A stretch of 64,000 nt of DNA, taken from contig OY769902.1 of assembly GCA_963669175.1 (NCBI GenBank), positions 544,001 to 608,000 on the forward strand, given 5' to 3'. This document shows positions 19,144 to 38,710 of the stretch, piece by piece. Both the position numbers and the translations under genes were made by a program. The notes under the pieces were generated by a model. It was not told the DNA's origin. It did not search any database and saw nothing but the letters and a program-made list of their open reading frames with translations. The stretch's first letter is position 1; every line of letters starts with the position of its first letter. The stretch is from a bacterium (GTDB lineage: Bacteria; Electryoneota; Electryoneia; Electryoneales; Electryoneaceae).

Positions 19144-20028
19144 ATGGCAACCCCGGAACTGACGTGTAACGCCTGCCATGACGGATCAATCGACTGGAAC
19201 ACTCTCACCTGTTCATCCTGCGGGCATACGCTTGCGGTTGAAGATGGTGTCATCATGTACAGCGATATTCGCAATGAGGACGACTATCCTGAGGAGATGA
19301 CCGACGCCTTGGTAGGAGTCCAGGATAAACACTTCTGGCATACGTCGCGCAACCTGTGGTTGCGTGCCTGTATGATAGATATCATGCGGTACAATCCTCA
19401 TCCTACGTTCCTGGAAATGGGTTGCGGCACTGGGTTTGTCACGCATGCCATTGAAAAACTGGGTGTGGATGCTGTCGGCTCGGATATGTATGCCTATGGC
19501 CTGAAACTGGGCGCAACCTATACCGACAGCCCCCTGGTCAGTGCGACGATTGACCAGTTGGCGTTCCGGGACAACTTTGATGTGGTGGGGCTGTTTGATG
19601 TCATCGAGCACCTTGATGATGATCTTGCTGCGCTTCGCCATGCTACGACCTACCTGAAACCGGGAGGCCACCTGCTTATCACTGTTCCCGCCATGCAGGG
19701 ATTGTGGTCACGTTTTGATGAGGACCAGGGGCATAAACGCAGATATAACAGGGACAAGCTACTTACTGTATTGCAGCAGGCGGGATTTGAACCGGAACAT
19801 ACGACCTACCTGTACAGCTTTGCTTTGCCCATGGTCGCCCTGCAACGACTGGTTGTACAACGAACGCCGAAAAAGAAATTACATGACTACCTTCGTCCCC
19901 CGGCAGCACCGATAAATTCTATCCTGAAACAACTGGCAGTCCTGGAATTGCGGCTGCATTATGCACTGGGGAAACGTGCTTATCCTTTCGGAACATCGCT
20001 GCTTTGTGTGGCGAAGATGAAAGGGTGA
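19144..20028 (+). CDS. Class I SAM-dependent methyltransferase
   Basis: HFW, LEMGCGTG, FDVIEH, LKPGG.LLITVPA, HKRRY; N-terminal CxxC...CxxC. Confidence 0.9.
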   Translation: MATPELTCNACHDGSIDWNTLTCSSCGHTLAVEDGVIMYSDIRNEDDYPEEMTDALVGVQDKHFWHTSRNLWLRACMIDIMRYNPHPTFLEMGCGTGFVTHAIEKLGVDAVGSDMYAYGLKLGATYTDSPLVSATIDQLAFRDNFDVVGLFDVIEHLDDDLAALRHATTYLKPGGHLLITVPAMQGLWSRFDEDQGHKRRYNRDKLLTVLQQAGFEPEHTTYLYSFALPMVALQRLVVQRTPKKKLHDYLRPPAAPINSILKQLAVLELRLHYALGKRAYPFGTSLLCVAKMKG

Positions 20029-20048
20029 GGAAAAAGGACGGAGCAGCA

Positions 20049-21920
20049 ATGCCCGGTTTTATATTCAGGTTGAAATCGTTGGAGGTCGTATTCGCAGCCC
20101 TCATTTTCGGCTGCCTTGCCACCTTCAGCGAGCTCTACATGTATGGCGATGCCGGGGCAAACTTTATTGAATATCTCCCGGTCATCCAGCGTTTGAATGA
20201 CTCTTCCCTGTATCCCGTTGACTTCTACGTCAAAGAAGCGGTCGGGTTTTCCGTGCGCACTTATACCCTGCAAACCCTTGCATGGTTGTCTCAGGCATTG
20301 CCGTTGTACCTGGTCGTGTTAATTGCAGTCCTATTGGGAAACAGCCTGATCATGGGCGTGGTGTTCCTGATCGGGCGTGACCTGTTCCGTGATGACCGTT
20401 ATATCCTGACCGGGATGGCCTTTCTTGGGGCACTCAAGGGCATCAGCTTGGGCTGGGCTACATTTGCCATCTGGCACGAGTTCAACCAGGCAACCTATTC
20501 TGAAGTTTTCGCCCTTCTGGCACTCTGGCAAGGCTTGCGTAACCGTTCGCTTCCCGCCATCCTGTTTTCCATGGCAGCCGTAGCGATTCACCCAGTCATG
20601 GGTTTCTTGTCCGGAGGTGCGATTCTGTCCATGATGACCCTCAACCGCCTGTGGCTGGCCTGGGTACATCGTTCAGATGGCGCGTTGGTCAACTCCGCAG
20701 GAAGAGTGCTCGCGCCAGTTGGCGGGATGGCGTTGTTGATGGCGGTCTTATATGGCCTGTACATGGGCAGGTTTGCTTCTGAACCGACCAACGACCTTTT
20801 CTTCTATATCACCTTCTACTTGCGTGCTTCCCATCATTATGTGCCTTCGCATTTTATGATGCGAGATTGGGTGTTATTGCCCTTCTTCCTGCTGGGCTTT
20901 GGGCTGGCCTTTCTTGATTGGCGCAGACGTGAGGGCAATCATCACCCGATGCTGCTTCCCCTGTTTTTACTGATGCTGGTCGTGTTTGCGGGATTGGTGG
21001 TTGGGTATGCCGGAGTGGAGATTTTGCCGATCCAATCTATCGCTTCCGCCCAGTTGTATCGTCTGCTTTACCTGGTGAACCTGCTAGGGCTGATTTTCGC
21101 GGGACGTTCCGCTGCGGCCTGGCTGTTCACTGCCGAAAGCAAACCGCAACGCATCAGCGCCGGGTTGCTGTTCCTGGGCAATTACAATATTCAACCCATA
21201 GCCTACAGTTTTTCCCACCTTGGCGAGTATGCCGGACGGTGGCTTGGACGGAAATACGGGAAACCGGGTGAATGGGGACCACGGATCGCGGCGGGACTGG
21301 TTATCGTAGCGGGATGGGTGGTCATCTCGGTGCGTATCCGTGAAACGATCTTCCTGGCTATCCTTTTCGGCCTCGTCCTGCTGATCAATGCACTGGCCGC
21401 CAAATCCTGGCGAATGGTCGTGCCCACCCTGCTGGCTGCAATGATTTTTACAAGTCTTGTTGCCTTCCGTACATCGCTTCCCTTTGATCAACATATCGCC
21501 AACATTCGTATCGAGGATGGCGACTACCCGTTGGATGATGTCGCTCTGTGGGCACGTGAAAATACACCAGTTGACGCCTTGTTTATTACCCCCAGTAAAA
21601 GCGCCAGATTTCGCCTGGTGGCCCAACGCTCCATCGTGGTCGATTTTAAATGTTTCCCCTTCCAGGCTTCCGCCGCGCTGGACTGGTATCAACGCCTGGT
21701 GGACATCCACGGTGAACCGGACGGCCTCGGCTTTACCGCCATGAACAACTGGGATGAACGCTACCACGATATCACAGACGATAAGTTGCGTGAGCTTGGG
21801 TCTCAGTTCAATGCGGGATACGCGGTCCTCTTCAAGGATACCGATACGGCCTTGCCGGTGCTGGTAGAAGGGAATGAGTTTAAGATTGTACGGATTGAAG
21901 AGCCTTCGCAGGAACCGTGA
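20049..21920 (+). CDS. Polytopic membrane protein, possibly a GT-C-type transferase (DUF6798-like)
   Basis: Many TM segments; RASHHYVP; C-terminal WARENTPVDALFITP...FRL...RSIVVDFK; operonic with GT2. Confidence 0.65.
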   Translation: MPGFIFRLKSLEVVFAALIFGCLATFSELYMYGDAGANFIEYLPVIQRLNDSSLYPVDFYVKEAVGFSVRTYTLQTLAWLSQALPLYLVVLIAVLLGNSLIMGVVFLIGRDLFRDDRYILTGMAFLGALKGISLGWATFAIWHEFNQATYSEVFALLALWQGLRNRSLPAILFSMAAVAIHPVMGFLSGGAILSMMTLNRLWLAWVHRSDGALVNSAGRVLAPVGGMALLMAVLYGLYMGRFASEPTNDLFFYITFYLRASHHYVPSHFMMRDWVLLPFFLLGFGLAFLDWRRREGNHHPMLLPLFLLMLVVFAGLVVGYAGVEILPIQSIASAQLYRLLYLVNLLGLIFAGRSAAAWLFTAESKPQRISAGLLFLGNYNIQPIAYSFSHLGEYAGRWLGRKYGKPGEWGPRIAAGLVIVAGWVVISVRIRETIFLAILFGLVLLINALAAKSWRMVVPTLLAAMIFTSLVAFRTSLPFDQHIANIRIEDGDYPLDDVALWARENTPVDALFITPSKSARFRLVAQRSIVVDFKCFPFQASAALDWYQRLVDIHGEPDGLGFTAMNNWDERYHDITDDKLRELGSQFNAGYAVLFKDTDTALPVLVEGNEFKIVRIEEPSQEP

Positions 21921-22112
21921 TTCGGTTGTTACAAAGTTATCACGTTTGAAAGTTGAAAAGTATTCTGGGTCTCGACAGAAATGTCCCGTTCTGTCATCCC
22001 TAAGGCAGAGCCTGTCCCCGAAAAATTGAAACCCTACAGTGATCCCTGCCTGAACGGGGAGTCGGGCCACTCGCCCATCCACTTCTGTCTTCCACTTAAA
22101 AGCGATTTCCAC

Positions 22113-22731
22113 CCACCCCGATGGGGTGGAACACGAATAGCGCGGGGTGTAAACCCTGTCTCTTACCCACATCTTCTGAAAGCTGTATCAGTAAAAGAGT
22201 TGTGGACATAGCATTTTTAGAATCCCGGCGGGATTCCCTATTTTAGCATAGTGTACAGGCCGTCTGTTTGGCCTGTACACTATGTCAGGTATTCTAACGA
22301 ATAATCAACCCTGGAAGGGTTGCATAATACGCGATTCATATTAGTACGTTCAATAAATACAGGAAATAACGCATTTTATATTCTATACAAACCAATTGGG
22401 TGTAAATTATACGTTATGCAACCCTTCCAGGGTTGAGATAAGGTTTGATCTTTTTCGTAGGGTAGACGCTAAACAGACAGCGTCAACCCTACGCTAAAAT
22501 ATACCACCCCCTCTGGGGTGGCAGAAACACGAAGATGTGAGCAAGAGACAGGGTGTAAACCCCGGGAGAACAGTCACCGTCCCCCTCCCACGATCCCGAA
22601 GGGATCGCACAACATTTTGGGAATAGGTGGTTTATTCATGTGAGTCCCCTTCGGGGACAGGTCATGGGTGAAACATCCTATTCCCCGGCACTTACGTACC
22701 GCGCTATTCAAGTGGTTCACCTTCGGTGAAC
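22113..22731. repeat. Outer REP-like doublet interrupted by a MITE
   Basis: GAATAGCGCGG...CCGCGCTATTC inverted arms with hairpins CCCCGATGGGG, TCCCGAAGGGA, GTCCCCTTCGGGGAC, TTCACCTTCGGTGAA. Confidence 0.75.
22156..22551. mobile_element. 396-bp non-autonomous element with IS50/Tn5-like 19-bp ends
   Basis: Ends CTGTCTCTTACCCACATCT and (revcomp) CTGTCTCTTGCTCACATCT; perfect 10-bp direct repeat GGTGTAAACC at 22146-22155 and 22552-22561. Confidence 0.9.
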
Positions 22732-22877
22732 TGGATTTGTCCGTAGTTCTGGATTACAATCCGATACAGCTTGTGCGATGAGAGAACAAAGTGCGGTTGG
22801 GTGGATCAAAATAGTGGACGAATCACATGAATCGATGGATACTGATCTGCGCATCATCGTTCAGGACAAAGCGCATC

Positions 22878-22942
22878 CCTAATTCCTAATTCCTAATTGG
22901 CAACCTGTCAATTCCTAATTCCTCATTCTTAATTTCTAATTG
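22878..22942. repeat. 7-nt periodic tract (AATTCCT)n
   Basis: CTAATTCCTAATTCCTAATT...AATTCCTAATTCCTCATTCTTAATTTCTAATT; similar tract at ~37289-37318. Confidence 0.85.
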
Positions 22943-22946
22943 ACAC

Positions 22947-24068
22947 TCACCGCGGTTGTTTCATCTGTTCATCATACAGGTGCAGCGCGGCGGTGGCGAC
23001 TTCCATGGGATCGATGGCGTTCAGGTCTCCGATAGCGGATTGGGAACCGCCACGGAAAACAATCGCCGGTTCATCGGATACCGGCCACCAGCGCCAGGGA
23101 ACAGTCGGGCCCATAGTGGAAACAGTCGGTACGCCCAAGGCAGCGGCGAGATGTAACGGTCCCGTATTGTTGCAGACCACGACACTCGACGCGGCGAGCA
23201 TATCCATAAACGTAGTCATGGGAGGCGCGATCACCAACGGCGCGGCTTCCAGCTCGATCAGACGTTCGCCCATGTCACGTTCGCCCGGACCGACAATCAC
23301 TGCCACATCCACACCTTTGCGTTGCAGGACACGCATGACCATCGCGAAGGACTGCAACGCCCACCGCTGGGACGGGAAATGAGCGCCCGGCATGATGACC
23401 ACCGGGTCTTGCAGGTGTAGCTCGGACCATTTCTCGTGCCCTCGGGCCAACCGGTCTTCTCCGCTGGGCAGACGTGGAATCGCATCTTCCGACATGGCCC
23501 CGATAGAAGCCGTGAGTTTCAAGTAAACTTCACGAGTCGGTAACGTGATCGGAGGAGGAGCTACCGCATGCGTATAATAGACGCCACGTCCCCCGCGATC
23601 CATGCCGACCCGGTTGGGGATACGTGATTTTTTCAACATCCGGGCGATCTTCAATTCCACCCGTCCGGTCAGGTCCACCACCAGGTCAAAGCCGCCATAC
23701 TTCTGCTGTAATCCCACCAGCGCCTCAGGGGGCGCAACATCTCCCCACCCGGCCCCGGCGAAAAGGTCTTTGGCGAAGGGTGGCGCTACCAGGGTACGTT
23801 TTGCCTGGGGGAATTGACGTCGCAGCGCGCTCAACGCCGGTTCGGCCAAAATCAGATCACCCAGCCTTTCCAACTGTATCACCAGCAGGGACGAAACGTG
23901 GTCCCGCGACAGGATCGGTCCCGGCCCCGGTTTGCCGTGAATGGTACGCAGCCATTTTTTACGGAGGCCGTACGCGAATCGTCCACGCCAGTGGGTTGAA
24001 TCAAGGGTGCGTGTATCTTCCGGCGGGGGCGGCATGCTGTCGCCGAAATCCTTCCAGCGGTCACTCAT
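22947..24068 (-). CDS. Glycosyltransferase family 9 (ADP-heptose:LPS heptosyltransferase-like)
   Basis: RLGDLIL, PGA....RW, NNTGPLHLAAALGVPTV..GPT. Confidence 0.92.
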   Translation of the reverse strand: MSDRWKDFGDSMPPPPEDTRTLDSTHWRGRFAYGLRKKWLRTIHGKPGPGPILSRDHVSSLLVIQLERLGDLILAEPALSALRRQFPQAKRTLVAPPFAKDLFAGAGWGDVAPPEALVGLQQKYGGFDLVVDLTGRVELKIARMLKKSRIPNRVGMDRGGRGVYYTHAVAPPPITLPTREVYLKLTASIGAMSEDAIPRLPSGEDRLARGHEKWSELHLQDPVVIMPGAHFPSQRWALQSFAMVMRVLQRKGVDVAVIVGPGERDMGERLIELEAAPLVIAPPMTTFMDMLAASSVVVCNNTGPLHLAAALGVPTVSTMGPTVPWRWWPVSDEPAIVFRGGSQSAIGDLNAIDPMEVATAALHLYDEQMKQPR

Positions 24069-25192
24069 CGGCGTTCCTGCAACAGCTTGTCATACATGGC
24101 CATAATCTGCGTCGCCTGGTTCTCGAGGGTAAAATGATTTAACACATATTTCAGCGCTGCATTGCCCATACGTTCCCGTCGGTCGCTGTCGTTCGCCATT
24201 TCAGAAAGTGCGACCACCCAGGCTTTCCTGTCTTCCAGGGGCACCAGCACCCCGGTATGTTCACGGTAGACCGCTTCATTCACACCGGGAATATCGGACG
24301 CTACAGCAGGCAATCCGCAGGCCGCGCCTTCGATCAGCACACGTCCGAAGCCTTCTTCGGTCGAGGGCAGCACTACAAAATCCAGTCCGGGCAAAAGTTT
24401 TTCCGGGTCATCTACAAACCCGATCATCTTCACCCAGCGCGACAGGCCTTCATCTTCGATACGTCTTGCCAGACGCTCACGTTCCTCAACAGGCTGATCA
24501 CCAGCAAGCACGAGGCAGATATCCGGCGCACGTTCCAATACATCTTTCCACAGGTCCAGCAGGAAATCATGACGCTTCAACGGTACAAAGCCAGCCAGGA
24601 AACCGACCAGCACCTTCTTTCGTGGCAGGTCGAACGTCTTGCGAATTTCCAACTTCTCCGCTTTGGTGGCAGCAGGTTTGAACAGCTTGGTATCAACAGC
24701 ATTGTAAATGATGCGCAGCTTGGGCAGGGCGACAGGGAGATGAGTGAAGCGTCCGGACACAGCTTGTGTCACCGCGATCAGACGGTCCGCTTCCTGGGCC
24801 AGCAATTTGTCGGAGAAACCATCGGGCGTGTTTACCCGCAGGTGCATGACCAGTTTGGCCTGACCACGAACCCATGCGGCAAGGTGACAGTTCCGTGGCG
24901 CATCGGCATGAATCACGGCGGGACGGACATCCCGGATAATCTGACGCAACGCCAGCGCTCCGCGAAACAGACGCAACGGGTGACGTGGGCTGAACGGCGG
25001 CCAGTCAAGGGAATAAACGGCGACTTCACGATGGAACAGTTCTCGCGATAACGGGCCCGGTTCCGGTACGACCACATGCGGGCTAAACCGGTCCCGGTCG
25101 AGATGCTGAATCAAGTGCAGCAAACTGCGCTGCCCCCCTCGACTCAGGTCGGGCTTGGTGCTGAGGTACAGGATGGGGACCGGTCTGTTCAT
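24065..25192 (-). CDS. Glycosyltransferase family 4
   Basis: GGQRS, IYNAVD, EGFGRVLIEGAACGLP; stop overlaps the GT9 start. Confidence 0.9.
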   Translation of the reverse strand: MNRPVPILYLSTKPDLSRGGQRSLLHLIQHLDRDRFSPHVVVPEPGPLSRELFHREVAVYSLDWPPFSPRHPLRLFRGALALRQIIRDVRPAVIHADAPRNCHLAAWVRGQAKLVMHLRVNTPDGFSDKLLAQEADRLIAVTQAVSGRFTHLPVALPKLRIIYNAVDTKLFKPAATKAEKLEIRKTFDLPRKKVLVGFLAGFVPLKRHDFLLDLWKDVLERAPDICLVLAGDQPVEERERLARRIEDEGLSRWVKMIGFVDDPEKLLPGLDFVVLPSTEEGFGRVLIEGAACGLPAVASDIPGVNEAVYREHTGVLVPLEDRKAWVVALSEMANDSDRRERMGNAALKYVLNHFTLENQATQIMAMYDKLLQERR

Positions 25193-25600
25193 GCGGATAA
25201 GATACGAAACAAGGGGCCGCCTTTCCGATAGGACGAGACTCTTTTTACCGCTCACTTCGCTCGCAGATTCCCACATGGATTCACAAGGATGAACAGGATA
25301 TGAAGGATGGAAAGGATAAAAATTTTCAGGGGTGATTATGTCGACTATTATACAACAGTCCAACCGAAACCCGACAGCAAGCAGTCGGGCCACGCGTCAA
25401 ATGGATACTCACATTGAATTATAGGATCCCCGGTCAATACACCTCAGCATACAAGGCCGGGGATGACATGGGAACTGGGGTGAGGATGACATGGGATATG
25501 GCGCTAACGATGATAGAATGGGACATTACACTATATCACTGCTTATATCACTACCAACTTTCTTTTTTTCACTTTTTTCACTGTCAACTTTTTTCACTTA

Positions 25601-25641
25601 ACAAACAAAAACCCCTGATGCCATATTTCAGGACCAGGGGC
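25601..25641 (-). terminator. Intrinsic terminator of secDF
   Basis: Minus strand CCCCTGG...TCAGGGG followed by TTTTTGTTTG. Confidence 0.6.
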
Positions 25642-25665
25642 TGAAAGTTCTATCAATCAGGGCGT

Positions 25666-26577
25666 TTACTTCTTGGCGCGTTTTTCCGGTTTCCAGTCAT
25701 TCCATTCGATCAGGATCGGGCTTGCGACGAAGATCGAGGAATAGGTACCGACGACCACACCGGCCAGCAGTGCGAACGCGAAGTCATGGATAACCATACC
25801 GCCGAAGATGTAGAGGACCAGCACTACGATCAAGGTCGTGCCTGAAGTCAGGATGGTACGGCTCAGGGTTTCGTTGATCGAGATGTTGATCTGGTCAAAG
25901 AGCGGCTTGGCGCGCAGCTTCTTGACATTTTCACGGATACGGTCGAACACCACGATGGTATCGTTCAGACTGTAACCGACGATCGTCAGGAAGGCGGCAA
26001 TGATCGACAGGCTGATTTCCAACCGTAGCAGGTTGAACAGGCCGAGTACGATCAAGACGTCATGCGCCAGGGCGATAATCGCAGCGATAGCGAAGCGGAA
26101 TTTAAACCGCCAGCTAAGATAGACCACGATGAACAGCAGCGCCCAGATAATCGCCATGAAAGCGGCTGTACGCAGTTCGTGACCGATTTTCGGACCGACC
26201 TGCTCAACGCTTAACTCTTCCGTGATGGGGTTTTCCGGGAACTTGGCGTTCAACTTGTCGCGTAATTCTTCCACGACCAGTTCGCCCTCTGCGGTCTGCT
26301 TGATGCGGACCAGCAGGTCTTCATAGCGTCCCTGCACCACTTTTTTCACTTCCGCATCGGGATAACCGATGTCGGCCAATGCTTCACGCATGTCGCCAAC
26401 AGGAAGCGGATTGTCGAAGCGGTAAATAATCTGCACGCCGCCTTCGAAATCAATGGAATAATTGGGGCCGATGAACAGGCTGACGATGCCCCACAGTACC
26501 AGTACGCCACTGATCACAAACATGATCCGGCGTTTGCCCTGGAAGTCGTAGTTCGTGTTGTTAAAGATCTGCAGCAT
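25666..26577 (-). CDS. secF: Protein translocase subunit SecF
   Basis: IDFEGG, VGPKIG.EL, HDV, GYSLNDTIVVFDRIRE, GTYSSIF. Confidence 0.97.
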   Translation of the reverse strand: MLQIFNNTNYDFQGKRRIMFVISGVLVLWGIVSLFIGPNYSIDFEGGVQIIYRFDNPLPVGDMREALADIGYPDAEVKKVVQGRYEDLLVRIKQTAEGELVVEELRDKLNAKFPENPITEELSVEQVGPKIGHELRTAAFMAIIWALLFIVVYLSWRFKFRFAIAAIIALAHDVLIVLGLFNLLRLEISLSIIAAFLTIVGYSLNDTIVVFDRIRENVKKLRAKPLFDQINISINETLSRTILTSGTTLIVVLVLYIFGGMVIHDFAFALLAGVVVGTYSSIFVASPILIEWNDWKPEKRAKK

Positions 26578-26580
26578 GGC

Positions 26581-28701
26581 TCAGATACTCAAGTTCTTGA
26601 CCGTACGAGTGGTCGTGTACCAGTCGAATATCGCCCGTGTTACCACCAGTGCGGTGAACATGGAAGCGACAATCCCTATCATCAATGTCAGCGCGAATCC
26701 CTTGATCGGGCCGGTACCAAACTGGTACAGCACCACTGCCGCAATCAGGGTCGTCACGTTGGCGTCCATAATCGTAACAAACGCCCGGCCGTAGCCCATC
26801 TGAATCGAATTCCACACCGTCTTGCCGGAACGCAGTTCTTCACGAATACGCTCGAAAATCAGCACGTTCGCGTCAACCGCCATACCGACTGTCAGGATGA
26901 TACCCGCAATACCCGGCAACGTCAGCGTAAAGCTGAAGCCGGCAAGCACTGCCATCATGAACAGCAGGTTCAGCAGCAGTGCGATGTCGGCTACGAGTCC
27001 GCTGAAACGGTAGTAGATCGCCATGAAGACGATTACCAACGCCAATCCGATCAGTGCGCTGTACGCGCCCTTCTTGATCGAGTCAGCGCCCAGGCTCGGC
27101 CCGACGGTTCGTTCTTCGTCAATCTGTACCGGAGCGGGCAACGAACCGGAATTCAGCACAATCATCAGGTCTTCAGCTTCTTCCATGCTTTCCATACCTT
27201 CGATGATCGCCTGACCGTTCGGAATCCGTGTGTTGATACGCGGGGCCATGTGGACTTTGTCATCCAGCACGATGGACAGGTGCTCGCCTACGTTCGCCTC
27301 GGTGATCCGTGCGAACTCACGTGCGCCTTCACGTTTCATGCTGAGGTTGACAATCGCCTCACCGGCGCGCCCGGGATCGTTGGAGCCGGAATTGTAGTTG
27401 ACCGAAGCCTCTTCCAACGCGTCACCGGTAAGGGAGGCTCGGGAAGCAACCAGGTACAGCCAGTGGAAGGTCTGACCTTCACGCTCGACTGCCTTGTTGC
27501 CCCACAGGAATTCCCATTCGGAAGGAATCGCGTTCTGGACTTCTTCACGGCTCAGGAAACGCTTCACCATGTTCACGTTGCGCTCGGATACGATGATCTG
27601 ACGATCAACGCTGGTCAGCAACGAGGTGAAGGGGTGTTCCTTGTCTAACGTGATCGCTGTATCAGCAGCAGCTTCTTCGTCTTCCGCTGCGAACATGTCG
27701 TCGATCAGGTCGGCGTTGCCAGTGTCCGCAGTAGCATCCTGCATGGTTTCCGGCGCGCCGAAAATTTCATCTTCAACGGCAGACAACTGCGCATCTTCCG
27801 GTGTGGCTTCCGCGTCGGCTGTTTCCGGTGCGTCCATGACAGCTTCATCGCCAAACGCTTCCACATCTTCCGAATTCGCCAGCAGCTTGTCCAGGTCTTC
27901 CAGCACCTTTACGGTGACTTCAACCGGGGCAACCAGCTTGAACTCGAGCAGCGCGGTACGGCCGATCAGGGAATGTGCACGGGCGGGATCCTGAATACCC
28001 GGCAGCTCCATGAGGATACGACGTTCGCCCTGGATCGTGATGGAAGGTTCGCTGACACCGAACTGGTCAACACGGTTGGCCAGGATAGTACGTGCGCGAA
28101 CAACCGCCTTCTCCGCCTCGTCCATCAACTGACTGAAGATGAACTCGTCAGACTGGTTGGGATCGCCGAAGTACTTGGCAAGGGGGACACCCTTCGCTTC
28201 GAACGTGCCCATGACCACCGTCTTGAAGTCAGCAGTAGGATCTTCGAGCTGTTCCTTGATAGTAGCGGTCAGTTCCTTGTATTCCTTGCTCTGGTTGTCA
28301 CGCGCCAGATGATCCATCAGCTCGACAACATCTACTTCAAGAACGAGGTACATCCCGCCCTGGAGGTCCAGACCCAGCTTGATCGCCCCGTTCTGAGCAT
28401 CAGCGAATCCCTTGTAGAAATCGCCACGCATGGACTGGACTTCCGAAGCCAGCTCGTTACGGACCTGCGGATCGACTTCCTCACGGTGACGTATGTCAGA
28501 CGCGAGGTCATAATCCATCTGGAATATCTTATCCTTCAGGAGGGTCGAGGAAATACCGCTCTTGTCACTCATTGCCGTAATTCGCTCGTTCAGCTCTTTG
28601 TTGAGCACGAGCGTTTGCGCGGTTGGGATCAAATAATAGACCGCCAGAACCACTAGCGCGAGGATGATCAGCGCCCGGAATAGTTGGTTTCTTCGTTGCA
28701 T
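26581..28701 (-). CDS. secD: Protein translocase subunit SecD
   Basis: LGLDLQGG, RVDQFGVSEP, VGPSLG, GMAVDANVLIFERIREE. Confidence 0.97.
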   Translation of the reverse strand: MQRRNQLFRALIILALVVLAVYYLIPTAQTLVLNKELNERITAMSDKSGISSTLLKDKIFQMDYDLASDIRHREEVDPQVRNELASEVQSMRGDFYKGFADAQNGAIKLGLDLQGGMYLVLEVDVVELMDHLARDNQSKEYKELTATIKEQLEDPTADFKTVVMGTFEAKGVPLAKYFGDPNQSDEFIFSQLMDEAEKAVVRARTILANRVDQFGVSEPSITIQGERRILMELPGIQDPARAHSLIGRTALLEFKLVAPVEVTVKVLEDLDKLLANSEDVEAFGDEAVMDAPETADAEATPEDAQLSAVEDEIFGAPETMQDATADTGNADLIDDMFAAEDEEAAADTAITLDKEHPFTSLLTSVDRQIIVSERNVNMVKRFLSREEVQNAIPSEWEFLWGNKAVEREGQTFHWLYLVASRASLTGDALEEASVNYNSGSNDPGRAGEAIVNLSMKREGAREFARITEANVGEHLSIVLDDKVHMAPRINTRIPNGQAIIEGMESMEEAEDLMIVLNSGSLPAPVQIDEERTVGPSLGADSIKKGAYSALIGLALVIVFMAIYYRFSGLVADIALLLNLLFMMAVLAGFSFTLTLPGIAGIILTVGMAVDANVLIFERIREELRSGKTVWNSIQMGYGRAFVTIMDANVTTLIAAVVLYQFGTGPIKGFALTLMIGIVASMFTALVVTRAIFDWYTTTRTVKNLSI

Positions 28702-29191
28702 CGCTGCAGCGCCTTGCTTCAGTTCTCGCCGCTCCAGGAGCGACCGCCATTTATCTTACCAGCTAACCTTACGTAAAACAAAAACCTGTCCGAGCAATAT
28801 CCGGGACAGGCCCTGTTATTACGGAACTTCGAAATATAGGGGCGGAACCTATTGGAGTCAATAAAAATAACCCAATGGCTCTGCTTGAGCGCCGTTTATG
28901 AATAATCTGCTTGGCTACATGGCTACTCTACGTGAGCGCAACGGTATCCTACCTACACTTGTCTTGAGTGCAGTTGCATCCCCGGCTACCATTTTTCACG
29001 GACAGCTTTTTACATTATGGAAGAACAATAACTTTGGAACTTTCCAACTTTTCAACTTTCAAACTTATTTACAGGATGAACAGGATGGGAAAGGATAATC
29101 AGGATAATAATACGGATAGTAAAAACTATTGTGCTGTCTGATGTGTTGTTTCTTTTTTCACTTTTTTCATTGCCTACTTTTTTCACTTTTT

Positions 29192-29292
29192 CATGTCCTC
29201 CCCAACCTACATGTCATCCCCAACCTACATGTCATCCCCGGCCTACATGTCATCCCCGGCCTACATGTCATCCCCGGCTTGAACGGGGATCT
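29192..29292 (+). repeat. 18-bp tandem repeat (about 5 units) ending in a REP hairpin
   Basis: CATGTCATCCCC(AA/GG)CCTA repeated, then CATGTCATCCCCGGCTTGAACGGGGATC. Confidence 0.92.
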
Positions 29293-29333
29293 CGAGGTTC
29301 AACGCACCAATCTTCCCCGCTTCGCCATCCGCT

Positions 29334-29480
29334 CCCGACTTGCTCAGCGAATGCAGCGCAGTGGAAAGTGTGCCATACAGCACCGTTACTGCAAGAGCGT
29401 TCACCTGCACACCCGGCAAATCGGGCCATGCGTTTTCTGTTGCTTTTTTCACCTTTTTCACTGCCTACTTTTTTCACTTC
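29334..29480. repeat. 92-bp hairpin element (copy 4) plus TTTTTCAC tract
   Basis: CCCGACTTGC-72 nt-GCAAATCGGG-CCATGCGTTTT; diverged direct repeat of 29830-29979. Confidence 0.9.
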
Positions 29481-29829
29481 TTCAAATCATTCCCGGCCAG
29501 GCATGGCCGGGCTGCCTTTCTTTACCTTTTTTACTTTTTCTACCTTCTTTACTTCTTCCTTCTAAGTCTTTTTTTTCGAGGGATGCGAACAATTTGCATT
29601 CAACAGATTGAATGACTAATTTGAAAAGCCGAGCATATGGAGAGACTATGAAACAAATGAACCGCAGGTATTTTTGTAAGCAGTATGTCGTTCAAGCGCT
29701 TAGGAACACCCACACACAGTTCAGATGGCATTGCTTTCCCCGCCTTTTCTATCTGATGCCAGCCCTCGTGTTGTCAGTTTGTACCCAACTCCGGGAGGCT
29801 CTCGTGAGTATGCTGGAAAGTTCAAGATT

Positions 29830-29979
29830 CCCGACTTGCTCATCAAATGCAGCGCAGATAGAAGTGCAGGGAACATCGCTGCTATCGCGAGAGCGTCCAC
29901 CTTCACAACCGGCAAATCGGGCCATGCGTTTTTCTGTTTCTTTTTTCACCTTTTTCACTTTGCTTACTTTTTTCACTTC
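29830..29979. repeat. 92-bp hairpin element (copy 5) plus TTTTTCAC tract overlapping a CDS start
   Basis: Same termini; 50 of 72 loop positions identical to copy 4 with no gaps. Confidence 0.9.
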
Positions 29980-32900
29980 GAGTTTAGCGGAGACATTTGT
30001 TTCCGGCGAAGTTTCCGGCGTGTGGAACGTGGAGGGCTCGCCTTACCTCGTCACCGACACGTTGACTGTCCCCGAAGGGGATACCCTTCGGGTTGAACCC
30101 GGTGTCACTATCACCTTTCTGGATCAGACCGACAGCACACGCACTCCTTTCATCGTGGAGGGGACATTACTAGCGTTGGGCACGGAGGGCGACTCCATTC
30201 GTTTTACCTCACCGGAATGTGGCTTTTTCGGCATCTATGTTCCCTTTGAGCAGTATAACGCCACTATCCACATGGAATATTGTGTGATTGATTCGGCCTA
30301 TAATGGTATTTGGTCCAACAACTGTCATACTGTAGTTAAACATTGCTGTTTTACTGTGGGCTATTGGCCTGTCACCGTGACGAATGGCAATGTTCGGGTG
30401 GAATACTGCACCTTTTTCAAGAGTGCCGGTGGAAACACGAATCTCACGCATGCGGTTTTTTCTTCGGGCGATTCTGTATCCATTCATGATGTGTATGCGC
30501 CTACGACACGAATTCAAATCGGTTCCTGCGGGTTTGTGGATACGGTCTTCAATATCATTGCAGATCAGCTCAATATGAATTTCAGTGCGGCAGAAATCAA
30601 ACAAACTGAGGTGAAGTACATTCATTTATCGAGTGGCAGCTACCATATGTATGATCTGGGCGAGGAAAGTTACCCGGCAGTGCGTTTTTATCGGGCTGAC
30701 ATTCTTGCAGAAGATTGCCACTTGTCCAACGTGATTTTGTCCGAAAGCAGCGGTGTTATTCGTAACAATGAAATCAACGGTGCATCCGTAAGTTTTCGCG
30801 GAGTGCTTGACTTGAACACCTCTTCAGATGTGGACATCTACAACAACATTTTCAATGGAACTGTAACAGCCATATCGATTGGGACGACGGACAATGTAGC
30901 CATTTGGAACAATACTCTTCTATTCGGCTCCAACGGCATTTACCAGACCAGCAGCACGAATATCTCTGTCTGGAACAACATCTTTCAGGGTGATGGGGTA
31001 AGCTGTACCGGCATCAATTGTCTGACTGAAGCGCCGCCAGAAGAGATTCATTACAATACTTTTCATAACCTTTCTCAAGTCACCAACGGTTTTGAGCTGG
31101 ACGAAACCAATCTGGTTACCGATCCCTTCCTTGCTGGCGGTGATCCTTTCGACTACCACTTGCAGGCCAACAGCCCGTGCATTGACGCCGGTGATCCGGA
31201 AAGTCCGGACGATCCCGACGGCACCCGTGCCGATATCGGCTGCTTCTATTACGACCAATCCTTAGACAACCCTCCAGTCCAAACCATCCCCGAAGAAGTC
31301 TTCGCGCAGACCGGACAACTGCTCCGTATTCAGATTATCGCAATCGACGACAACGGCCCCTTCAGCTTCACGTTACCGGACCTTCCGGACTGGCTGACCG
31401 AAGAGGACGAACTGGATTGGGTCAGTGATACGACCGTGGTATCGGGAACCGTGCCCGAAGATGCGGAGGACTTCAGCTTCACGGTGATTGTGGAGGATGG
31501 TGAAGGGCAGACGGATACCTCCCTTGTCACGGTGGATGTTGACCAGCGTAACCTGTTATATGGTGAGATCAGCGGTGTTTTGCATGTTGAGGACAGCCCG
31601 TTCTACGTAGTCGAGGATATTGTCGTCCCCGAAGGTGACAGCCTGGTCATCGAACCGGGATGTGAATTGCAGTTCAGATATGTGGAGGATGAAGAGCAGA
31701 GGATCCGGGTTTACTGTAATGGTTCTCTTATCTGTGAGGGTGTGGAAGGAGACAGTGTTTTTCTGAGAGGAAGCATACAAGATTTGGAATCGGAACAATG
31801 GAGTGGGATAGAACTGACAACGACTTCCAATGCGAACATTGCATACACTAGATTTGAAAATGCCGCAATTGCTATACAAACTAGTGAGGAATGTGATATA
31901 CATGTAGCAAATACATTGTTTTCCAGAAACAATCATTCTATAGTAGCAATAAATGACAGTACTATAACAATTAACTTATGTAGTTTTAGAGCAACAAACA
32001 TGAGTAATACACAAATTATCTTGAATAATTCAAAAACCATTATCACTAATACTATATTCTATGCACAAAATCACATAGCAAATATTAGAGCAGATAATGA
32101 ATCAGTGCTATCAATATCAGATTGTAAATCGTACAATAATGGCTATGTGTCGATAAATATGGGAAGCTATGGCGAAATAAGGAGGTGCAGTTTTTATCAA
32201 ACTCGTCTTGGAGTTACATTTGCCAACCATGCTACAGGTATCGTTTCCAACTGCTTATTTAATGGTTTAGGGACAGACACATTTGGCGCCGGTGTCAGTG
32301 TTCCAAGAAAAGCCATCCATGTTGAAAACAATGTTTTTGTGAACAGCTATTCGGGGGTTCGATTTTTAGCTGTTTCATCCGGTGATACGCTTCCTATTGT
32401 TGTAAATAATTTATTTTTAGGTAACCATTATGCTATACAAGCAGTGGATGGATCAGAAGATTTGACTTCTATTGAATATAATAATTTCTTTGAAAATGAT
32501 TCGCTTGTATATCAATGTACATTAGGTGAAAATAACATGTTTCTAGATCCTTGTATCGTAGATGTAGATTCATTCTATTTGTATAATAATTCTCCACTCA
32601 TTGATGCAGGATATCCCGGTTTATTGCATAATGATAAAGATAGTACCCGCAACGATATTGGCCTATGGGGAGGACCGCATGGCAAGTCCTATGTATATCC
32701 ATTATCAGTCTATGAAAATGAGGTGTTTTTGCCGTCAGAATTCGCAATACTGTCAACCTACCCCAATCCATTCAATTCAAGCCAAGTTGTGACTTTCACT
32801 ACGCCAGAACTAAGTGCTGTAGAGTTCACGCTTTTCAATCTTCTTGGACAATCGGTATTGACAATAGACTGGCCTTCACTGCAACCCGGTTTTCATCACA

Positions 32901-32998
32901 AATCTTACAACGCTTCCGGTTTCGCTTCGGGCGTGTACTTCGTTCAACTATCTACAGGAAAGGAGAGCCAAATACGACGTGTATTTTTGATAAAGTAA
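29924..32998 (+). CDS. Large secreted right-handed beta-helix protein with C-terminal sorting-type domain
   Basis: Two SG....SP(Y/F)...VPEGD.L..EPG modules; YHLQANSPCIDAGDP/DIG motifs; YPNPFNS...ASGVYF tail; alternative in-frame starts at 29612 and 29648. Confidence 0.85.
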   Translation: MRFSVSFFTFFTLLTFFTSSLAETFVSGEVSGVWNVEGSPYLVTDTLTVPEGDTLRVEPGVTITFLDQTDSTRTPFIVEGTLLALGTEGDSIRFTSPECGFFGIYVPFEQYNATIHMEYCVIDSAYNGIWSNNCHTVVKHCCFTVGYWPVTVTNGNVRVEYCTFFKSAGGNTNLTHAVFSSGDSVSIHDVYAPTTRIQIGSCGFVDTVFNIIADQLNMNFSAAEIKQTEVKYIHLSSGSYHMYDLGEESYPAVRFYRADILAEDCHLSNVILSESSGVIRNNEINGASVSFRGVLDLNTSSDVDIYNNIFNGTVTAISIGTTDNVAIWNNTLLFGSNGIYQTSSTNISVWNNIFQGDGVSCTGINCLTEAPPEEIHYNTFHNLSQVTNGFELDETNLVTDPFLAGGDPFDYHLQANSPCIDAGDPESPDDPDGTRADIGCFYYDQSLDNPPVQTIPEEVFAQTGQLLRIQIIAIDDNGPFSFTLPDLPDWLTEEDELDWVSDTTVVSGTVPEDAEDFSFTVIVEDGEGQTDTSLVTVDVDQRNLLYGEISGVLHVEDSPFYVVEDIVVPEGDSLVIEPGCELQFRYVEDEEQRIRVYCNGSLICEGVEGDSVFLRGSIQDLESEQWSGIELTTTSNANIAYTRFENAAIAIQTSEECDIHVANTLFSRNNHSIVAINDSTITINLCSFRATNMSNTQIILNNSKTIITNTIFYAQNHIANIRADNESVLSISDCKSYNNGYVSINMGSYGEIRRCSFYQTRLGVTFANHATGIVSNCLFNGLGTDTFGAGVSVPRKAIHVENNVFVNSYSGVRFLAVSSGDTLPIVVNNLFLGNHYAIQAVDGSEDLTSIEYNNFFENDSLVYQCTLGENNMFLDPCIVDVDSFYLYNNSPLIDAGYPGLLHNDKDSTRNDIGLWGGPHGKSYVYPLSVYENEVFLPSEFAILSTYPNPFNSSQVVTFTTPELSAVEFTLFNLLGQSVLTIDWPSLQPGFHHKSYNASGFASGVYFVQLSTGKESQIRRVFLIK

Positions 32999-33096
32999 AA
33001 AACACCGCACGGAGTAGTCGGCAAACTTCAGCCGTGCGGTGTAACCACAATGATCAACACAAGGGTGTTGATCCTCAAGAAGATAAGGAGTGAAGT

Positions 33097-36000
33097 ATGT
33101 TTAAAAAAGTGCTCTATATCGCTGTATCGGTGCTGCTGGTGACTTCGTTAACTTCAGCGCAGAACTACCTTGATGAAGATATAGATGAAGATCTGACACT
33201 AAATCCAGTCGCATACATTGTACGTGCACAGACTGAAGGCGATGGAATTATTGAAATAATTGATAATGCTACACTGACTATTTCCCCTGGATGTACCCTT
33301 CAGTTCATGCCTGAACGCAGTATTTTTATCGATGGCGGATCCGCGCTAACAGCATCAGGTACAGCCGTTAGCCCAATTATTTTTACCAGTAATTCTGATC
33401 CGCAAGCTGCAGGTGATTGGGGTCAGATCATCTTTGCCGGTGATAATGCCGTTGATGTTGCTACAGGTACTTTCTCCAACTGTATATTTGAGTACGGTGG
33501 CAACGAAGATGACGATACCGGCGGGTTTCCAGATGGCGCTGCTGTCATGGTGGCCGGATTTGCAGATCTGACCGTGGAGTATTCTACCGTACGGTATTGC
33601 GAAGGGACTGCGCTAGGTGTCAATTATGGAAACACACTTGATCCCGTCACCGTGTGTTTTCAGTATAATGATATCTATCATTGTAATTCCGGGATAAAGA
33701 TTTGCGATCATGACGCCAGTTCCATTACCGTTGAAGGCAATAACATTATAAAGCCGTACAGGGAGAGCGGTGACGCAGACGGTGATTACAGCGGCATAGG
33801 TATTTTAATTAACAGTGGCACGATATATACTGATTTATATGTGAAGAACAACAGTGTGGCCTATGCCAGTTCACATGGTGTGATTACCAATGATATAAAT
33901 GAATTCTACAACAATACAATTATTCATTCCATGTTGTGCGGTTTTGTATACAACGGCGTCGTGACTGTAACAGACCATTTCAAGAACAATATCGTCTATG
34001 GTTTCTCGGAACAAGCAGGTATTGATTCTGTTGGAGTCTATGCTCGAACAGCAATGGGCGCTGAGAACTGTTGTGTATATGATCCTGCTGCAGTTGGGTT
34101 TTACAATGTGACCCCTACCGATACGATTCGAACACTTCCAGGTCTGATTGACACTAACGGATTTGTACCGGAAGATCTGGATCTGCACTTGATGTTTTCT
34201 TCCCTGTGTCTCCATTCAGGCGATTCTACGGCAGCCGCGGACACCAACCTGAACGGAACCCACATTGATATGGGAGCCTATGGTGGTATAAAGGCTCGGG
34301 ATTATTATATGGGGGTAACCGGTACTCTTCCCGATGGTGGAAGCATTACAGGTGAAAAGGGATCGCCCTTTTATGTTACCGGTGAAGTGATACTGCCTGC
34401 AGGGGACGAATTCGAGATAGCTTCTGCCGCTGAAGACCTGGTTTTTGAACATGGGCCATCGGCAAAATGGACAATCCTGGGTGACCTGAACATTCGTGGT
34501 ATTTCAAACAGTGTTAACGACAGCCGGGTAAACGTGCAGATCCTGATATAGGATGGACTGGGATACAGTTTTACGGCTCATCAATCGATACACTGATATA
34601 TGTAGAAATATCGGGATCTGATTGTGGTCTGAAGATTGGAGGCAATGCGCAGGTGAAGTATAGTAATCATCTTGTCATTCGTGACATTATTGATGATGGT
34701 ATCCAATCCACGTCGAGCAATCCTTCTGTTTTTAATGATGTTGATATCTCATGTGCAGGCGATTATGGTCTTCGTTGCACAGGAGGTGCTGTCAGCTTCT
34801 CGCTTGGAAGAATAGATTCGTGTGGTACAGGCATCTCCATAACCAATAGTACAGGTTCTGTAATTGATAGTAGCGTTATTGCTTATAGCACTCACTACGG
34901 AGTCTATATCAATAACAGTAATCCTGTAATAAAGCGAAATACAATTTCCCGAAACGGGAAAACAGGGTTGTATTTATATAATACGTCAATAAATGTAGGT
35001 GTAACACGACAAGATATGGGCAATCGTATGGAGTCAAATGGTATGACAGGATCTACTGCATGGGATAGAAGCGAAGTTATGATAAACTTCGGCTCACCTG
35101 GATTCAAGTATTGTCATAACGATTTTGTCAATCAGAATGCATCAACAAATAAGCTGGTGTATATCATGAATGGTACAATTCCTGTCGGTTGTGGCAACTA
35201 TTGGCGTGGTTATGGGCCTGATCCGGAATTCTGGTTTCTCCCGGATGGCGCTATTGATGACGTGTCTTCCTGGGATGTAACCAACAACCGTCCGGCCTTT
35301 ACCAGTACTGTAGACTTGATTACCCTGGCTTCTTCCTTTGAACTGCAAGGTGACTACGAAGATGCGGCGGATACCTATATGCAAGCTTTGGAAGCAGATA
35401 ACGATGTTCTGGGGCTCAGTGGTTGGATCAGGTGCCAGACAATGCTTGGCACATCGCCATCAACCATCCTCGCAGAAGTGGAAACCTGGATTGATGATGA
35501 AACAACAGTTGGTGAGTCCGCTTTCTGGTTCTCTATTGCACTACAGAATGGGATGGCGGATTTTGAAACTTCCATTGACGAGCTTGACGCTTACATTGAC
35601 GACGCTGACACGCCTGAGGATTCTTTACGTGGTGTGTTTGGTCAATTGGTGACCTACTACCAGATGGCACATGCAGAAGAAGGCGGCCTGGGCGTAATGA
35701 ATTACACGGGTGATGATACTGAATCCCAGCCCTTCGGTCTGCCGCAGTTGGGACGTTTGAACTTCCCGGTTCCACGTAACGAAGCGGATTACATGCGAAA
35801 GAGTGATGAGTTGCTGTCCATGTTCGGCCAGATTCACAACCAAGAGTTCGGTGACAATTCAGGTCTCCCAACATCTTACGCCCTTCGTCAGAACTACCCG
35901 AATCCCTTCAACCCGACCACGACGTTGAGCTTTGACCTGATGCGTCCAGAGACGGTCAAGCTATCGGTTTACAACATCATGGGCAAGGAAGTGGCGCGAT

Positions 36001-36134
36001 TGGTGGATCGTCCGATGCAGGCGGGTACGCATAACGTGACTTTCGACGCGAGCCCACTGGCCAGCGGAATGTACTTCTACCGGATCGAGGCGGGATCATT
36101 CACCGATATGAAGCGGATGGTTTTGGTGAAGTAG
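33097..36134 (+). pseudogene. Secreted beta-helix protein with sorting domain, split by a frameshift at ~34518-34551
   Basis: 33097-34551 has the signal peptide; the second frame opens at 34518 and reads KRADPDIGWTGIQF into 34653-36134, ending NYPNPFNPTT...LASGMYFY. Confidence 0.75.
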
Positions 36135-36164
36135 TGTCCGTTGATAATAACAGTGTTCCTTCCG

Positions 36165-36196
36165 CCATAGCCCGAAATGCGAGTTTCGGGCTATGG
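36165..36196 (+). terminator. Terminator-like hairpin
   Basis: CCATAGCCCGAAA-TGCGAG-TTTCGGGCTATGG after the stop; no clear T run. Confidence 0.6.
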
Positions 36197-36523
36197 TCAT
36201 TCAAGTCATCGTCCCACGGCAGTAACACCATGAAAACCTGCGTACCACAACCATGTGAGCCCCGTCACAGCTTGGATAGCAGCATTTTCAACGGTTTCGT
36301 ACTTTTCGGATTCATCTTCTAACCTGGTCTCCGGGTACCCCTTTCGCAGATAAAGAAGCACTGGATTTTTCGTTCAAGCATTGGTAGAGATTCTCAGGAT
36401 GATTATATTGTTTTTACGATCGGGAACCGACGGGGAGAATTTCCTGTTTCCACGTACTCCCCAATGGTGTTACTCCCACCTGTATACCTATCAGCAGCGT
36501 CAACCAGCATCAGTCGGGAATCG

Positions 36524-37132: not shown

Positions 37133-37481
37133 ATTTGTTGAAGTGGAAAAAGTGAAAAAGGTAAAGAAAGTACATGTGACGCAGTATGTATTTAAAAAGA
37201 GGTGTATTTCCTTACATCCCCATCATTGACGTCCTTCCTTATCCTGCGCATCCTGTGAATTCTTGATCCAATTCTTGCCAGCCAACCCATTTCTAATTCC
37301 TCATTTCAAATTCCTAACCCGAATATTTCATGAACGAAACATGGATAATCATCTTAACACAGTTCATATCAGCACAATACAACTGATTCATACAGCATTT
37401 TCAGGGTACAGTTTGCTCCGGTAGTCCTTTGCGTGTTTATTCCCTGTTTCGCTGGCAAAATGAGGCTGAGTATCGGCAACC

Positions 37482-37730
37482 GCCCCGGCAGGGGCAACCT
37501 GTATTAGCCCAGGGCTGCCGCCGTCAGTTTGGCGGCTACCCTGGGAGATAAGGCGCACCATATATTTACTCCGGAAGGAGTAACCTGATAATAATCACAA
37601 GTATACGGCGATAATATCTAGGCAACCCGCTGCCGGGGTTGGCAAGTAGCGTACATCCTATTCCCACCGTGAGCGCCAAACAGACGGCGCTGGACGGTGG
37701 GCTAATACAGAGAACCACTGCCGTGGTTCT
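37482..37730. repeat. REP-like doublet related to the cargo of the Tn5-ended MITE
   Basis: CTGTATTAGCCCA/TGGGCTAATACAG inverted arms; loop motif CCGTC(A/T)GTTTGG / CCAAACAGACGG shared with ~22260 and ~22470. Confidence 0.8.
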
Positions 37731-37787
37731 TGTACTGGCCATTTCATCACATACCACATTTGAAATTGCATTGGTGAAATATTCGGG

Positions 37788-38495: not shown

Positions 38496-38710
38496 GTTTT
38501 CCGTTTCTGTTACCGCCTGCGGACCGAATCAATGTACGGAATCAGGCAGGCGAGAACACGAACCACGGGGTAGGCCAAAAGGGAAAGCCCGGGATTACAC
38601 TGGTGGACCGTTTCACTTTGACGCCCTCACACATGACGCTTCGCAATGCCCGGGTGCAAGCACGCCGGGCCACACAAAGCCGGGCCACGCATGATATCCA
38701 GGGAATGCTT

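Follow-up and report, generated by a model that had tools for sequence, protein, structure and literature searches.

Tn5 is the standard tool of tagmentation, with a choice of target that is usually treated as near random. For the IS50 subgroup of the IS4 family, Table 1 of De Palmenaer et al. (2008; PMC2266710) gives a length of 1350-1550 bp, ends of the type CW------Y---CA-A--W- and direct repeats of 8-9 bp. Targeting of REPs is described by Tobes and Pareja (2006; PMC1525189), in the parts of that paper used here, for the IS3, IS110, IS4 (ISRm22), IS256 and IS5 families, and the targets of Tn5 are there said to tend towards palindromes. Our literature search, with ISfinder outside its scope, found neither a MITE of the IS50 subgroup nor targeting of REPs, or of REP apices, by that subgroup; in a review of MITEs (PMC10969869) the term 'IS4' is absent, and IS50 and Tn5 are named solely as textbook examples.

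The element described here was found in a window of 64,000 nucleotides (positions 544,001 to 608,000 of contig OY769902.1, assembly GCA_963669175.1) from a bacterium of the Electryoneaceae, the genome of which is assembled as one contig of 5.45 Mb. Window positions 22156-22551 are very probably a MITE of the IS50 (Tn5-like) subgroup of the IS4 family, here called MITE1, that was moved in trans and inserted with a 10-bp stagger at a REP dyad. Like MITEs in general it is small and non-coding, has terminal inverted repeats and target duplications, and is present in high copy number; since it contains no transposase gene, it is a non-autonomous derivative and not an IS.

Compared by eye with the subgroup consensus CW------Y---CA-A--W- as given in PMC2266710, the 19-bp ends of MITE1 fit, both carrying C1, T2, T9, C13, A14, A16 and T19, and the full-length relatives of MITE1 are 1476 bp long with a transposase homologous along the whole Tn5 transposase. 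MITE1 differs from IS50 and Tn5 in its 10-bp duplication (8-9 bp in the 2008 table, PMC2266710), in the insertion of its lineage at the apex of REP-type hairpins, and in being a non-coding element of 396 bp, against 1350-1550 bp, without a DDE transposase gene of this kind in element or genome. Among the REP-targeting elements, ISRm22 of Sinorhizobium meliloti is similar in that all copies described in PMC1525189 lie in REPs, with palindromic targets and GC pairs at the ends of the duplications; in contrast to MITE1, it is an autonomous IS and is listed in PMC2266710 under IS4Sa, not IS50. IS1397 and ISKpn1 (IS3 family), and IS621, ISPpu9 and ISPpu10 (IS110 family), share REP-palindrome-specific insertion as described in PMC1525189, but their transposases belong to unrelated families with a different chemistry, and the IS110 elements, in the accounts consulted, use a guide RNA and make no 10-bp duplication. 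REPINs and BIMEs with their RAYT resemble both the targets of MITE1, which are short GC-rich palindromes in inverted doublets with one family flanking Y1 genes, and the interior of MITE1, which is also a doublet of inverted hairpins; on the other hand, MITE1 has DDE-type terminal repeats and duplications. Finally, Tn5-like IS of Legionella (loci L019, L027, L030 and L035, among the matches listed) are ~1.5 kb long, with ends CTGTCTCTTGATCACATCT and CTGAATCTTCTACACATCT and a transposase 40% identical to that of the full-length IS in a genome of the same family as our source (G009, see below), but they make a 9-bp duplication and belong to a different branch of the transposase tree.

MITE1 is located in a hairpin-rich region of ~1 kb between two convergent ORFs, 20004-21920 (+) and 22947-24068 (-). 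The features of the locus are as follows.

22113..22145, + strand: left unit of a REP-like inverted doublet: hairpin CCACCCC-GAT-GGGGTGG at 22113-22129, then, up to 22145, the conserved linker ..GAATAGCGCGG
22143..22155, + strand: left half of the interrupted hairpin CGGGGT-GTAA-ACCCCG
22146-22155: left copy of the target duplication GGTGTAAACC, the last 10 bases of the left half of the target hairpin
22156..22551, + strand: MITE1, non-autonomous, 396 bp, no ORF of at least 60 aa, 12 further identical copies in the genome
22156..22174, + strand: left terminal inverted repeat CTGTCTCTTACCCACATCT, 19 bp, by pattern match
22220..22236, + strand: internal hairpin GAATCCC-GGC-GGGATTC
22247..22284, + strand: H2 hairpin module; arms perfect, 15 bp; conserved loop GTCTGTTT at 22262-22269
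22305..22327, + strand: central inverted repeat (23 nt, perfect), left arm, itself the hairpin CAACCC-TGGA-AGGGTTG
22414..22436, + strand: central inverted repeat (23 nt, perfect), right arm
22451..22498, - strand: second H2 module, inverted and with a different stem, its loop AAACAGAC (22471-22478) being the reverse complement of GTCTGTTT
22504..22521, + strand: internal hairpin CCACCCC-CTCT-GGGGTGG
22533..22551, - strand: right terminal inverted repeat CTGTCTCTTGCTCACATCT, 19 bp, by pattern match
22552..22564, + strand: right copy of the duplication GGTGTAAACC (22552-22561), followed by the remaining right arm of the hairpin
22683..22731, - strand: right unit of the doublet, inverted; on the + strand GGCAC-TTAC-GTACC, linker GCGCTATTCAAGT, then GGTTCACC-TTCG-GGTGAAC

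The first-pass annotation of this DNA had read positions 22113-22731 as a three-level nesting, with Tn5-type ends, a 10-bp duplication and the centre of a palindrome as target, and each of these points was borne out. The two ends of MITE1 are the only matches to the end pattern in the window (0.04 expected from 100 shuffles), and by eye they show 2 and 3 differences from the mosaic-end string, i.e. agreement at 17/19 and 16/19 positions. When MITE1 and one repeat copy are taken out, the hairpin CGGGGT-GTAA-ACCCCG is restored. From the window copy alone the duplication could be 8-12 bp long (the repeat search reports 12 nt), since the terminal C/G of the ends recurs in the bases that adjoin the repeat, and it is the other copies in the genome that fix the length at 10 bp. 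The two units of the doublet are spaced 570 bp apart, which becomes 164 bp after subtraction of MITE1 and one duplicate, and two uninterrupted doublets have spacings of 166 and 169 bp; MITE1 sits in the GTAA hairpin of the left unit. A direct repeat consisting of TATTCA.GTG and a TTCG-loop hairpin occurs at 22633-22657 and again at 22705-22729, the two being 80% alike with different stems, and it appears to belong to the two-hairpin REP-like unit.

The interior of MITE1 is a long imperfect palindrome, in which the central arms (22305-22327/22414-22436) are 100% complementary and a further arm pair (22239-22282/22458-22501) is 77% complementary, in line with the palindromic cargo that had been proposed. 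The arms of the H2 modules are found at 22247-22261/22270-22284 and, for the second module, at 22451-22470/22479-22498. Folded as single-stranded DNA, the interior reaches -105 kcal/mol (z = -13.3, 100 shuffles), and an Rfam search of window positions 20000-40000 with E up to 1 gave no match. The proposal that the cargo is a REP doublet holds for the inverted hairpin doublet, whereas the word REP is here just descriptive, the modules not being linked to a RAYT gene. Similarly, the proposed kinship with 37482-37730, the interior of another MITE, is real but limited to one common 39-nt hairpin module (local score 38; mean 17 and maximum 26 in 200 shuffles).

37318..37787, + strand: MITE2, 470 bp, with ends CCCGAATATTTCA... 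and the duplication CTAA at 37314-37317 and 37788-37791

MITE2 carries paired H2 hairpin modules like those of MITE1 (at approximately 37505-37550 and 37665-37705) and is otherwise unrelated to it and of IS5 type. The genome holds 46 near-full copies with 86-100% identity, one of them inside a MITE1 copy (genome 847595-848464). Duplications of the YTAR type, 4 bp long, are made by IS5-group elements, and those of MITE2 are 4 bp and of this type (CTAA 11, CTAG 11, TTAG 6). The H2 module itself consists of a ~16-bp stem and, as its conserved loop, the 8 nt GTCWGTTT. Copies with stems of at least 8 bp number 153 in the genome (0-2 for three control loops), distributed over MITE1 (86), MITE2 (36) and other locations (31), mostly as inverted pairs, and their 5' arms are of 34 different kinds with compensatory changes. 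When the positions of H2 modules and Y1 genes in the genome were compared by eye, no adjoining pair was found. Compared by eye with the Ssn-related motif, as that motif is given in PMC11893778, the H2 loop reads GTCWG vs HGTCWY at the start of the motif, and we claim no match.

In the whole genome, 43 inverted end pairs were found, 41 of them 395-398 bp long and the other two 870 and 1717 bp; a 44th copy has degenerate ends, and there are 7 solo ends of MITE1 type. Thirteen copies are identical, the window copy included, and 29 simple copies are at least 98.7% identical to it, whereas one copy shows 93% and a subfamily of 11 shows 89-90% identity. The 870-bp copy is a MITE1 with a second MITE of 469 bp inserted. 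The 1717-bp copy was considered as an autonomous element and rejected, its interior being a foreign 1312-bp IS of the IS4_1 type with a 9-bp duplication. Short-read contigs of the organism show a 24-28 fold higher depth in the element (919 and 720) than in its flank (38.6 and 26.1), and the left MITE1 junction is spanned by one short-read contig of 4401 bp. Copies alike to MITE1 are also present in a marine metagenome run, and a DNA search in 40 relatives gave just a 53-nt hairpin-module match, in the sole congener genome. No precise empty site was seen in the public runs searched, and transposition was not observed directly; a joint of 22070 to 22552 in metagenome run X1 was rejected as an empty site since it skips 481 bases and is not precise. 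Solo or diverged ends at genome positions 518119 (-), 2154927 (-) and 4882417 (+), e.g. CTGACTCTTACACACATCT and CTGTTTCTTGCTCACATCT, represent additional MITE families of greater age that have Tn5-like ends; the interiors behind them differ from MITE1 and again hold H2-type hairpins.

Tabulation of duplications and targets, a check that had been proposed together with the first reading, gave perfect 10-bp duplications with different flanks in 36/43 copies, and copies such as GCCGTTAGTT settle the length at 10 bp. The commonest duplication is GGCT-WW-AGCC, at 24/43 sites. In the remaining 7/43 copies the two repeats differ at 1-3 bases or are shifted by 1 base. In five of these seven, one repeat has a central dinucleotide that is typical of other occupied sites, with the outer REP arms unchanged. 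At five copies with imperfect duplications (genome 271929, 1183775, 1750582, 2144036 and 3926219) one repeat copy carries a different central dinucleotide, which in 3 of the 5 is the reverse complement of its partner's, and the same odd-dinucleotide pattern is seen in the duplications of two metagenome IS loci, L124 and L149. Our guess is that gene conversion between near-identical copies, reaching the shared GGCT..AGCC, may have made the imperfect duplications.

The search for an IS50-group transposase, which had been suggested along with that for the ends, gave no matching gene in the source genome: profile searches with PF02281 and PF14706 yielded no match at E up to 1, and the best result of a tblastn search of the genome with three Tn5-like transposases had an E value of 0.75. 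Apart from the MITE1 carrying the foreign IS, there are no MITE1-type end pairs 1-3 kb apart in the genome, and a PF14706 search of one other genome of the genus found no Tn5-like transposase. Because the enzyme is absent from the chromosome, the 13 identical copies would point to a recent burst by a transposase since lost, to an enzyme on an unassembled replicon, or to a transient enzyme.

A resident transposase could instead have mobilised MITE1 in place of a Tn5-like enzyme, which would account for recent activity without a Tn5-like gene. The genome has 12 DDE_Tnp_1 matches in four IS types, two of which are IS4-family types with CTGTCC in their ends. However, these enzymes are classed as IS701, IS5 and IS4_1, and no resident transposase falls in the NF033590 model, into which the G009 enzyme described below scores with 425 bits. 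Furthermore, the ends of the resident IS (ACTCGGTTTTG.., GTCGTCTCTGA.., CACTGCTGTCCGG.. and CAGAACTGTCCGG..) are unlike those of MITE1, and the IS4_1-type copy that inserted into MITE1 made a duplication of 9 bp. We regard such cross-mobilisation as improbable.

With no Tn5-like gene in the source contig, the enzyme that moved MITE1 had to be deduced from relatives. MITE1-type ends were found in 6/15 other genomes of the family and in 1/9 genomes of another family (0 with a reversed-pattern control). They form 8 end pairs, all of MITE size (232-389 bp); inspection by eye showed direct duplications of 10 bp at hairpin tips for four of the pairs, perfect in two and with a single mismatch in two, and no 10-bp duplication for the other four. 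Tn5-like genes were detected with PF14706 in 3/15 genomes of the family. In one of these, G009, there are two 1476-bp IS copies with ends CTGTCTTTTAGTCACATCT and CTGTCTCTTAGTCACATTT, both (2/2) with the 10-bp duplication GGTTCCATCC at a hairpin apex, the target hairpins being CCCGGGGG..CCCCCGGG and CCCGGTGG..CCACCGGG. The ORF of this IS has the domains Tnp_DNA_bind and DDE_Tnp_1, and a weak Dimer_Tnp_Tn5 just under the cut-off. Its product aligns with the Tn5 transposase structure 1mus_A over residues 43-492 (E 1e-88), including the stretches DTT, CDREAD and RWRIEE.HKAWK, which we take to hold the DDE and YREK residues. Another IS, in the genome G003, is 3'-truncated with its right end and last ~40 residues missing, so that its duplication length is unavailable, and its end adjoins ..GCACCCGGCTTCAGCC, the same REP as is targeted in the source genome.

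MITE1 has ~20 terminal bp in common with the full IS, the interior being unrelated, and the ends of the full IS (G009, and the metagenome locus L120) agree with those of MITE1 by eye at 16-18/19 positions, the length of the duplication and the kind of target being shared as well. The G009-type enzyme is a candidate mover of MITE1 ends. The existence of a natural Tn5-like transposase with a 10-bp stagger, as the first-pass annotation had supposed, is thus upheld by full-length family members that encode a homologue of the Tn5 transposase and by the 10-bp duplications shared between MITE1 and the G009 IS.

Homologues of the G009 enzyme are numerous (640 proteins at E 1e-20 or better), and the named sources call them 'IS4 family transposase'. 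To place the duplication lengths, 53 loci were examined, comprising 50 metagenome loci, the two G009 copies and one Legionella IS. As the script used often missed or mis-called ends, only CTGTCTC-type ends with a clean repeat were used, and lengths of 8-10 bp that rest on one copy are soft. Perfect repeats of 10 bp were found at L115, L118, L129 and L169, and a 10-bp repeat with one mismatch at L120, the transposase of which is 76% identical to the G009 enzyme. Repeats of 9 bp were found at L126, L140, L141, L142/L170, L145, L156 and the Legionella IS, and repeats of 8 bp at L122 and L166/L167; for the other loci the script gave no repeat or wrong ends. Most of these insertions are, on inspection by eye, bordered by CCCC and GGGG arms, and hairpin-tip insertion looks widespread in the Tn5-like group. 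In a tree of 16 transposases, G009, L120 and G003 group together with 100/100 support, and the other 10-bp cases sit next to 9-bp ones. A wide contig scan for the ends gave at least 84 loci which, among the matches listed, are mostly exact mosaic ends with adapter at contig ends; also among the matches listed is a named MAG with MITE1-type ends and target. Pairs of MITE size (~360 bp) with ends CTGTCTCTTGGTCACATCT were seen, among the matches listed, at L041, L061, L066 and L083 in a gammaproteobacterial MAG, of an unrelated phylum.

The target family in the window has the layout stem-GAAG-stem, ..TGAATAGCGCGG, stem-GTAA-stem, CCGGGA, with ~30 units in which the loops are GAAG (or similar) and GTAA, and the units often form inverted doublets ~165 bp apart. 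The string ATAGCGCGG has 45 matches in the genome, ~30 of which show by eye the two-hairpin layout with covarying stems, and in 6/45 a MITE end follows. The target hairpins are repeated short GC-rich palindromes, as REPs are, and the intergenic position is known for the window copy. The CCCGGCTNNAGCCGGG hairpin and two other hairpins form inverted arrays on both sides of an IS200/IS605-type Y1 transposase gene of 155 aa (L204, genome 5360800-5362000), and a second such gene of 143 aa (L205, genome 1502400-1503800) has an equal arrangement, in which one flanking hairpin is interrupted by the MITE1 copy 1502572-1502967. The CCCGGCTNNAGCCGGG family, the principal target of MITE1, thus flanks RAYT-like genes at two Y1 loci, out of ~10 Y1 transposase matches in the genome. 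The layout of both, inverted arrays of three different hairpins, is REPtron-like.

Insertion points are symmetric about the dyad of short palindromes with GC arms and an AT centre, i.e. the tips of REP-type hairpins, as had been anticipated with the suggestion of REP targeting. In reconstructed empty sites the mean dyad-symmetry score is 5.72 of 9 at the centre of the duplication; 1-4 bp away from it the mean is no more than 2.56, and for random positions it is 2.25. A score of at least 5 was obtained for 35/43 sites vs 5.2% of random positions, and also for 11 of the 19 sites at which the duplication is other than GGCTNNAGCC. The hairpins on which the insertions are centred differ in apex sequence and belong to at least three families, and by eye MITE1 is found in both orientations relative to the asymmetric REP. 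The sequence GGCTNNAGCC occurs at 223 sites in the genome, of which 45 adjoin MITE ends and 178 are free, the free ones dividing into 118 with at least 3 further stem base pairs and 60 without. Occupancy is 24/142 in hairpin context vs 0/60 outside it (Fisher p 1.8e-4, a value that overstates independence, REP copies being kin).

It could be argued that the enzyme has no preference for hairpins and that insertions outside REPs were removed by selection, REPs being intergenic and probably neutral landing sites and just the surviving insertions being visible. Selection of this kind cannot, however, give the base-exact centring on the dyad (5.72 at offset 0 vs at most 2.56 at offsets of 1 or more), nor does it agree with the 0/60 occupancy of non-hairpin GGCTNNAGCC sites or with the finding, by eye, that diverse Tn5-like IS in metagenome contigs likewise lie between CCCC and GGGG arms. 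This explanation appears unlikely to us. Two further explanations carry almost no weight. That the element is a tagmentation (Nextera) adapter or mosaic-end chimera of the assembly might be suspected from the 17/19 and 16/19 resemblance to the mosaic end and from the exact mosaic ends with adapter that are common, among the matches listed, at contig ends of public assemblies, but neither end is an exact mosaic end or leads into adapter sequence, the one-contig genome contains 43 internal copies with individual duplications (10 bp, perfect in 36/43), a subfamily has diverged to ~90% identity, related ends occur in 6/15 other genomes of the family with alike copies in the marine metagenome run, and full-length IS copies with such ends are known in G009; the first reading of the ends as natural and not as adapter chimeras thus stands. 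Equally negligible is a spread of the copies together with REPs by RAYT action or recombination, for which the ~10 Y1 matches and the imperfect duplications, suggestive of exchange between copies, might speak, as sharp boundaries at 19-bp ends, together with 10-bp duplications in several hairpin families unrelated to one another, are characteristic of a DDE enzyme that makes staggered cuts, and we know of no such target duplications made by Y1 enzymes.

For transposition of MITE1 by a Tn5-like enzyme, the mechanism would, by analogy with Tn5, comprise binding of both 19-bp ends by a dimer of a Tn5-type DDE transposase supplied in trans and excision of the element, after which two strand transfers staggered by 10 bp would join it to the target and gap repair would create the 10-bp duplication. 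A tentative extension, which we consider possible but doubtful, is that this Tn5-like clade reads DNA shape, such as an extruded or easily melted hairpin or a cruciform tip, rather than sequence; the hairpin would then be captured and the two strand transfers placed 10 bp apart, symmetrically about the dyad. Shape reading is compatible with the observations since at least three families with different apexes are targeted and non-hairpin sites of the same sequence are empty. From insertion sites, recognition of a hairpin and recognition of an extended palindromic sequence cannot be told apart.

The results describe a natural branch of the Tn5 family with ends 2-3 bases off the engineered mosaic end, a 10-bp stagger and hairpin-centred insertions, and they provide a concrete enzyme and end pair for testing altered stagger and directed insertion. 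Permissive adapter trimmers could clip genomic sequences this near the mosaic end. If the reading of shape is true, the clade would contain a natural structure-directed relative of Tn5 with ends near the laboratory mosaic end. With insertion at the tips of REP-type hairpins, MITE1 accumulates in intergenic repeats, and the IS50 subgroup joins the elements that use REPs as safe landing sites, here in the form of a high-copy MITE that persists without its enzyme.
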